NCBI RefSeq assembly: GCF_003334335.1 | Contig: NZ_QOWQ01000068.1 | Length of the DNA stretch: 8,688 nucleotides | Strand: one strand, 5' to 3' | Source: Escherichia coli | Lineage (GTDB): Bacteria > Pseudomonadota > Gammaproteobacteria > Enterobacterales > Enterobacteriaceae | Shown here: positions 5,917 through 6,871 of the stretch, in pieces | Layout of the letters: each line of letters opens with the position of its first letter | Numbering within the stretch: position 1 is the first letter of the stretch | Made by a program: the position numbers and the translations under genes | Notes under the pieces: generated by a model | Told to the model about the DNA's origin: nothing | Seen by the model: the letters and a program-made list of their open reading frames with translations, nothing else | The model's database searches: none

Positions 5917-6413
5917 TGCCTCCATCATTACGAAAAGCCGTTGCTGCTGCTATTGGTGGCGGAGCAATTGCTATAGCATCAGTGTTAATTACTGGCCCAA
6001 GTGGTAACGATGGTCTGGAAGGTGTCAGCTACGTACCATACAAAGATATCGTTGGCGTATGGACTGTATGTCACGGACACACCGGAAAAGACATCATGCT
6101 CGGTAAAACGTATACCAAAGCAGAATGCAAAGCACTCTTGAATAAAGACCTTGCCACTGTCGCCAGACAAATTAACCCGTACATCAAAGTCGATATACCG
6201 GAAACAACGCGCGGCGCTCTTTACTCATTCGTTTACAACGTGGGTGCTGGCAATTTCAGAACATCGACGCTTCTTCGCAAAATAAACCAGGGCGATATCA
6301 AAGGCGCATGTGATCAGCTACGTCGCTGGACATATGCTGGCGGTAAGCAATGGAAAGGTCTCATGACTCGTCGTGAGATTGAGCGTGAAATCTGTTTGTG
6401 GGGTCAGCAATGA
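5916..6413 (+). CDS. rrrD: SAR (signal-anchor-release) endolysin, R21-like lysozyme (165 aa)
   Basis: N-terminal Gly/Ala-rich weakly hydrophobic segment [20 protein letters not shown] typical of a SAR domain. By my count from the translation, Glu35, Asp44 and Thr50 are at the positions of the R21 catalytic triad. Confidence 0.9.
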
Positions 6414-6871
6414 ACAGAGTAACCGCGATTATCTCCGCTCTGGTTATCTGCATCATCGTCTACCTGTCATGGGCTGTTAATCATTACCGTGATAACGCCA
6501 TTACCTACAAAGCCCAGCGCGACAAAAATGCCAGAGAACTGAAGCTGGCGAACGCGGCAATTACTGACATGCAGATGCGTCAGCGTGATGTTGCTGCGCT
6601 CGATGCAAAATACACGAAGGAGTTAGCTGATGCGAAAGCTGAAAATGATGCTCTGCGTGATGATGTTGCCGCTGGTCGTCGTCGGTTGCACATCAAAGCA
6701 GTCTGTCAGTCAGTGCGTGAAGCCACCACCGCCTCCGGCGTGGATAATGCAGCCTCCCCCCGACTGGCAGACACCGCTGAACGGGATTATTTCACCCTCA
6801 GAGAGAGGCTGATCACTATGCAAAAACAACTGGAAGGAACCCAGAAGTATATTAATGAGCAGTGCAGATAG
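6410..6871 (+). CDS. rzpD: Rz-like inner-membrane spanin (i-spanin), 153 aa from the ATG
   Basis: ATG at 6410 overlaps the rrrD stop (ATGA); the ORF-track start at 6398 is a GTG. N-terminal TM helix ([18 protein letters not shown]) followed by a charged, coiled-coil-like periplasmic region. Confidence 0.85.
6630..6812 (+). CDS. rzoD: Rz1-like outer-membrane lipoprotein spanin (o-spanin), embedded in the +1 frame of rzpD (60 aa)
   Basis: Own RBS AAGGAG (6617-6622). Lipobox VVGC with Cys20; proline-rich mature part ([16 protein letters not shown]). Lies entirely inside rzpD in another frame. Confidence 0.85.

Follow-up and report, generated by a model that had tools for sequence, protein, structure and literature searches.

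Two nested genes occupy positions 6410-6871 of the stretch of Escherichia coli DNA that we analyzed (the window, 8,688 nucleotides in all). The outer gene, rzpD (6410-6871, plus strand), is an ATG-initiated ORF of 153 codons plus stop that encodes an i-spanin (Rz homolog), as judged from Pfam, PHROG and identity to phage lambda. The inner gene, rzoD (6630-6812, plus strand), is assigned from its ORF, Pfam and PHROG as an o-spanin (Rz1 homolog) and encodes a 60-amino-acid lipoprotein precursor. Its start lies 220 nt after that of rzpD, and (6630-6410) mod 3 = 1, which places rzoD in the +1 frame. The o-spanin gene is thus contained entirely within the i-spanin gene, as in the embedded type of spanin locus, and both the coordinates and the frame agree exactly with the initial annotation, which had put rzoD wholly inside rzpD.

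The pair follows a holin gene and an endolysin gene, an order that defines a lysis cassette and that is evident both from PHROG assignments and from annotated identical loci. The first gene of the cassette, essD (5701-5916, plus strand), encodes a 71-residue holin (PHROG 9876, 1.5e-37; PHROG 20, 1.7e-33), and rrrD (5916-6413, plus strand) encodes an endolysin (lysozyme) of 165 residues (PHROG 7, 4.8e-69); the names are those given to EssD and lysozyme RrrD in the annotation of a matching E. coli genome. EssD has methionines at positions 1 and 4 (MKSM), which we take to be a possible dual-start holin/antiholin motif, as in phage 21. The RrrD N-terminus is Gly/Ala-rich and hydrophobic by hydropathy analysis and presumably resembles a signal-anchor-release segment. 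Beyond essD on its upstream side lie quuD and, on the opposite strand, an intact ompC-like porin gene; bor lies downstream of rzpD, also on the opposite strand. Over the 651 bases around the pair, the window matches many E. coli chromosomal loci annotated as essD-rrrD-rzpD-bor at 100% identity.

Two hairpins flank coding parts of this region. Directly 3' of the rzpD stop, an 11-bp perfect hairpin, GAGTTGCCCAT-ATCG-ATGGGCAACTC (6871-6896, plus strand), stands between the convergent rzpD and bor genes and has no T-run. Its RNA fold is stable (-19.3 kcal/mol, z = -5.5, with 0 of 200 shuffles as stable), and the same hairpin is found unchanged in lambda and with two mismatches in K-12; it is possibly a transcript end or a stabilizer. 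A second hairpin, terminator-like and with a T-run after it, is located some 130 nt upstream of essD (5540-5571, plus strand) and may be the late-operon terminator acted on by the QuuD antiterminator. A search of the whole window with Rfam at gathering thresholds returned nothing. Elsewhere in the window, between ren and ybcN, we observed two adjacent ORFs with a 4-nt overlap (769-1329, 186 residues, and 1326-1778, 150 residues) that carry lipoprotein-type signals (…SLTGC and …LVGC), the second of them being very Gly/Ala-rich; both are hypothetical proteins in the matching genome and belong to no NCBIfam family.

The boundary between rrrD and rzpD is also a boundary in the ancestry of the cassette. 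In the DNA alignment, similarity to lambda sets in precisely with the start codon of Rz, and everything downstream of this point (Rz/Rz1, hairpin and bor) is about 99% lambda. RrrD and lambda R are unrelated (BLASTP E = 3.9), and the essD-rrrD segment is found at 98-99% identity in viable lambdoid phages. Since lambda similarity begins at the Rz start and RrrD is unrelated to R, the cassette reads, on sequence grounds, as a mosaic in which a non-lambda holin-endolysin module has been joined to lambda-type spanins and bor.

RzpD is a member of the Rz family by three lines of evidence: it matches Pfam PF03245 (Phage_lysis) over residues 29-153 at 3e-54, falls into PHROG 13 ('Rz-like spanin') at 1.2e-78, and is identical to lambda Rz at 151 of 153 residues. 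Its sole hydrophobic segment spans residues 4-22 (19-residue Kyte-Doolittle maximum 2.43), and the codons of an N-terminal transmembrane anchor (approximately residues 4-24, at 6419-6481, plus strand) encode a stretch that is also helical in the structural model. RzpD thus appears to have a single N-terminal transmembrane anchor, for which type II topology would follow from lambda (PMC5295617). An AlphaFold2 model built on an alignment of 11 sequences (mean pLDDT 74) has a helix at residues 2-87, a linker at 88-120 and a second helix at 121-152 that ends in Cys152, with the linker predicted to be disordered (pLDDT <50 at residues 97-119). The model thus predicts a periplasmic domain of two helical, putatively coiled-coil segments joined by a flexible linker, in agreement with the TMD-CC1-linker-CC2 layout of lambda Rz (PMC6139136). 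We found no solved structure of an Rz relative; sequence matches in the PDB were weak (~1e-4) and limited to the coiled-coil ATP synthase b subunit. NCBIfam HMMs gave no match at E <= 0.001 for RzpD, RzoD or EssD.

Membership of RzoD in the Rz1 family is similarly supported by Pfam PF06085 (Rz1, 3.7e-20), PHROG 3198 ('Rz-like spanin', 3.7e-30) and identity to lambda Rz1 at 59 of 60 residues. The initial annotation had credited rzoD with its own AAGGAG ribosome-binding site, a lipobox and a proline-rich mature region, and all three are present. The Shine-Dalgarno sequence AAGGAG lies within the rzpD coding sequence (6617-6622, plus strand), 7 nt 5' of the ATG, and is the longest anti-Shine-Dalgarno match among the four lysis genes. 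The identical AAGGAG occurs in lambda, whose annotation has a ribosome_binding_site feature in the corresponding position, and most homologs have (A/G)(A/G)GGA(G/A) there. The signal of 19 residues consists of a basic MRKLK n-region and a hydrophobic core and ends in the lipobox V-V-G-C (6678-6689, plus strand; Cys20 codon TGC at 6687-6689), which agrees with the consensus [LVI][ASTVI][GAS]C (PMC6139136).

The mature part of RzoD comprises 41 residues, of which 10 (24%) are proline, including PPPPP at residues 32-36, and it has a second cysteine at position 29. Cys20 is followed by Thr at +2 and Ser at +3. Under the Lol sorting rule, Asp at +2 is the residue that retains a lipoprotein in the inner membrane; RzoD thus combines a lipoprotein signal and a lipobox cysteine with a +2 residue other than Asp. 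RzpD has cysteines at positions 14, 99 and 152, and the periplasmic cysteines that could form disulfides as in lambda (Cys99 and Cys152 of RzpD and Cys29 of RzoD) are present. In lambda, homotypic intermolecular disulfides need Rz C152 and/or Rz1 C29 (PMC5295617). The proline-rich region of RzoD (residues 32-44, at 6723-6761, plus strand) shares its DNA with the codons for the disordered RzpD linker, an overlap that agrees with the lambda pattern, in which stretches that are mutationally silent in one spanin coincide with stretches that are sensitive in its partner (PMC5295617).

For a gene that lies completely inside another one in a different frame, lambda Rz/Rz1 is the textbook example. The lambda proteins have the same lengths as those described here (153 and 60 residues) and the same +1 nesting, at nt 221-403 of the outer gene, and the lambda outer gene is identical to rzpD at 458 of 462 nt (99.1%, 4 differences). 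RzpD departs from Rz at N2 (S in lambda) and Y18 (C in lambda), that is, at the N-terminus and in the TMD, and RzoD departs from Rz1 at R2 (L in lambda), a residue that it shares with K-12 RzoD. The Shine-Dalgarno sequence with its spacer, the lipobox, Cys29, the penta-proline stretch and Rz C99 and C152 are all the same in lambda, which also has the same bor gene and hairpin downstream and in which the two genes are annotated as i-spanin and o-spanin. The upstream partners differ, being the 71-residue holin and 165-residue lysozyme here, and lambda is a viable phage, whereas the locus in the window belongs to a defective prophage.

The DLP12 prophage of K-12 provides the closest counterpart in locus type. 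Its rzpD (b0556) and rzoD (b4510) show the same nesting, both loci have the order quuD, porin gene, essD, rrrD, rzpD/rzoD, borD and ybcV, and rzoD occupies the corresponding position in the annotation of the curated K-12 record. K-12 rzpD differs from the gene in the window by 14 nt, with 6 amino-acid differences in the first 35 residues, and starts with GTG in MG1655 rather than ATG. K-12 RzoD is likewise identical to RzoD here at 59 of 60 residues, the one exception being P34R in K-12, a change that is silent in rzpD and that falls at the single penta-proline position reported as tolerant in lambda, a position that also varies among homologs. The alignments to lambda Rz1 and DLP12 RzoD that had been proposed as a check thus gave the same count, and at the DNA level the allele here is nearer to lambda (4 nt) than to K-12 DLP12 (14 nt). 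The porin genes differ as well: nmpC of MG1655 is split by IS5, while the ompC-like gene in the window (4031-5173, minus strand) is intact.

More distant relatives retain the architecture. P22 gene 15/Rz1 and the Rz/Rz1 pairs of Stx phages belong to the same family and are embedded, with the nested gene annotated in P22, Stx2a_F451 and AU5Stx1. The lipobox cysteine and the C-terminal LNGII motif are conserved in Rz1 of P22 and the Stx phages; identity there is 36-77% for Rz1 and 57-76% for Rz, and the linker and proline stretch differ in sequence.

We extended this comparison to a set of 11 loci, namely this locus, lambda, K-12 DLP12, phi458, two Stx phages, 4A7, a Salmonella prophage, Enterobacter phage BHUENT3, P22 and Cronobacter phiES15. 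A nested +1 ORF with a signal peptide and lipobox occurs at the same place in all 11, across a set in which identity falls to 44% for Rz and 36% for Rz1. Loss of the lipobox cysteine in homologs had been named as an observation that would count against the nested gene; Cys20 is invariant in the 11-sequence alignment, as are S22, P33, P35, L50, N51, I53 and I54. Position 34 within the penta-proline stretch varies freely (P, R, D, A, M and E). In lambda Rz1, P32, P33, P35, P36, I39, W46, L50 and I54 are sensitive to mutation and position 34 tolerates substitution (PMC5295617); every one of these sensitive residues is unchanged in RzoD. The invariance of P33 and P35 and the variability of position 34 among homologs thus match the lambda mutational map (PMC5295617).

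Within this set, pairwise diversity at Rz codon positions 1, 2 and 3 is 0.31, 0.20 and 0.31 in the overlap, compared with 0.24, 0.21 and 0.45 in the non-overlapping periplasmic part, figures that are descriptive and come from 11 non-independent sequences. The third-position excess vanishes where the Rz third position is the Rz1 second position, which is the pattern that would be expected of dual coding. As a separate observation, a group of E. coli genomes matches 6600-6799 at 99.5-100% and loses similarity at about 6799. Loss of similarity at this point suggests that recombination has had a breakpoint shortly before the 3' end of rzoD, in a segment of Rz1 that is reportedly dispensable in lambda.

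Taken together, the locus is almost certainly a two-component spanin of the lambda Rz/Rz1 family with embedded architecture that ends the holin-endolysin-spanin cassette of a cryptic lambdoid E. coli prophage of the DLP12 type. The reading of rzpD/rzoD as an embedded two-component spanin pair, which had been made from the sequence letters, is one on which Pfam, PHROG, 99.1% DNA identity to lambda and K-12 b4510 agree, and we found no sequence features that argue against spanin identity. As had also been recognized, the arrangement is a known one, near-identical to lambda Rz/Rz1.

No Shine-Dalgarno match of at least 4 nt was found for rzpD, and the rrrD stop overlaps the rzpD start in ATGA (6410-6413, plus strand), from which we infer that translation of rzpD is coupled to that of rrrD. 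The transcript would be that of the late operon of the prophage, with QuuD as the antiterminator. We found no sigma-70-like promoter on the plus strand within or before rzoD, the only match in 5174-7300 being on the minus strand, and we therefore take rzoD to share the rzpD mRNA, on which it is read in the +1 frame with a strong Shine-Dalgarno sequence of its own. With Cys20 in the lipobox and Thr at +2, RzoD lacks an inner-membrane retention signal.

In lambda, Rz sits in the inner membrane with type II topology, whereas Rz1 is a lipoprotein of the outer membrane; each protein dimerizes with itself through disulfides (C99 and C152 in Rz and C29 in Rz1), and binding between the C-termini of Rz and Rz1 yields a periplasm-spanning complex (PMC5295617, PMC6139136). 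This complex acts after the holin and endolysin and, as the final step of lysis, fuses the inner membrane with the outer one; lysis is blocked when either subunit is missing (PMC5295617, PMC6139136). Translation and lipoylation of Rz1 and the requirement for the pair in outer-membrane disruption are established in that phage (PMC5295617, PMC6139136). By analogy, the C-termini of RzpD and RzoD would bind and the complex would span the periplasm as in lambda; once the endolysin has removed the peptidoglycan, it would draw the membranes together, fuse them and destroy the outer membrane. Because all mutation-sensitive residues are unchanged, this allele probably works as the lambda spanins do. 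The lambda Rz TMD, the region in which Y18 lies, can be replaced by an artificial one (PMC5295617).

What the pair does in its present setting is a separate question, since the prophage is defective and the spanins may thus rarely or never act in phage release. The genes could be intact without serving that purpose any longer, either as silent cargo kept by recent common descent or as genes that the host has co-opted, along with essD and rrrD, for turnover of its envelope, release of vesicles or lysis under stress. We regard this as a possibility worth weighing, though one that falls well short of even odds, and it is a matter of biological role alone, which does not conflict with the spanin mechanism. 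Several observations point toward it. The prophage is of the cryptic DLP12 type, with terminase and tail genes truncated in a genome that contains the identical region, and the spanin segment is present in 4890 of 5426 complete E. coli genomes, with 3567 records at an identity of at least 99%. The K-12 DLP12 lysis module is transcribed, modulates outer-membrane vesicles and causes lysis when overexpressed (PMC7918800); induced rzoD is toxic in K-12 (PMC9782134); and K-12 rzoD affects vesicle release under antibiotic stress (PMC12287860). Against this, recent spread or recombination, and not selection, may account for the near-identity across genomes, and deletions of rzoD necessarily damage rzpD, so the indirect phenotypes published for K-12 do not separate the two genes.

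The current product name implies a different function altogether, in which RzpD is a peptidoglycan endopeptidase that acts enzymatically on the cell wall. The name 'prophage endopeptidase RzpD', carried by RefSeq and echoed in several phage records, is all that speaks for this reading, which we consider highly improbable and have rejected on the basis of Pfam, PDB matches and the AlphaFold2 model. RzpD has no catalytic domain (beyond the Rz family, Pfam offers a much weaker match to DUF2681, at 6.7e-05), its predicted fold is one of two long helices and a disordered linker, and its PDB sequence matches, at ~1e-4, are to a coiled-coil protein. Genetic and biochemical work moreover gives Rz a structural role in membrane fusion (PMC5295617, PMC6139136). 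Given that RzpD lacks a catalytic domain, the product name 'endopeptidase' is unsupported.

We also asked whether the inner ORF could be an untranslated, chance alternative-frame ORF inside a single gene. In 20,000 synonymous-codon shuffles of rzpD that held the RzpD protein fixed, a +1-frame ATG ORF of 60 codons or more arose in 44%; another gene of the window, ybcN, contains a +1 ORF of 69 codons; and AAGGAG is not enriched in the window (3 occurrences against 2.9 expected), which makes its placement, rather than its presence, informative. Given the 44% figure, we dropped the length of the inner ORF as evidence, and the case for rzoD rests instead on homology, signal features and conservation. 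Even so, a chance origin is scarcely credible and is effectively refuted by homology as read from the sequence: RzoD matches Pfam Rz1 at 3.7e-20 and shares 59 of 60 residues with lambda Rz1, whose product and role in lysis are experimentally established (PMC5295617), a lipoprotein-type signal arises in just 0.4% of the shuffles, and the nested ORF, signal peptide and Cys20 are kept in 11 of 11 loci whose DNA differs by up to ~30%. A minus-strand ORF of 70 residues (6710-6922) and other alternative-frame ORFs were taken as chance.

A nested gene of this kind is easily lost from gene lists. The initial annotation had predicted that a standard gene caller would miss the inner gene, and this is borne out by a spread sample of 60 E. 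coli records that match window positions 6600-6830: a nested rzoD/Rz1 is annotated in 8 of the 60 loci overall and in none of the 34 near-identical, full-length, PGAP-annotated ones. PGAP-annotated E. coli genomes list rzpD alone over this segment, while the curated MG1655 record lists rzoD (b4510). A similar gap has been described by Kongari et al., in whose set 196 of 528 two-component systems lacked an annotation for the o-spanin (PMC6139136). The accessible text of 10.1101/511675 cites rzoD/rzpD as a known nested pair; we looked there for Ribo-seq evidence of initiation, a check that had been proposed for position 6630, and that text shows none for rzoD.

RzpD/RzoD is thus an already described, ordinary member of a thoroughly characterized family, and biologically it adds nothing new. 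Its value is mainly practical and lies in the correction of annotation: the product name 'prophage endopeptidase RzpD' is outdated, and since pipelines omit the o-spanin in most E. coli records and keep 'endopeptidase', a scan for nested lipoprotein ORFs can correct gene lists. A more far-reaching idea would explain by host co-option why most E. coli genomes keep the pair nearly unchanged: the host would have recruited it, along with essD and rrrD, into its own envelope physiology, for example to release vesicles in a controlled way or to lyse under stress. We consider this specific proposal doubtful, and it is already present in the K-12 literature (PMC7918800). Only a population-genetic demonstration would be new. 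If host co-option were true, the embedded arrangement would be under host-level, and not phage-level, selection.
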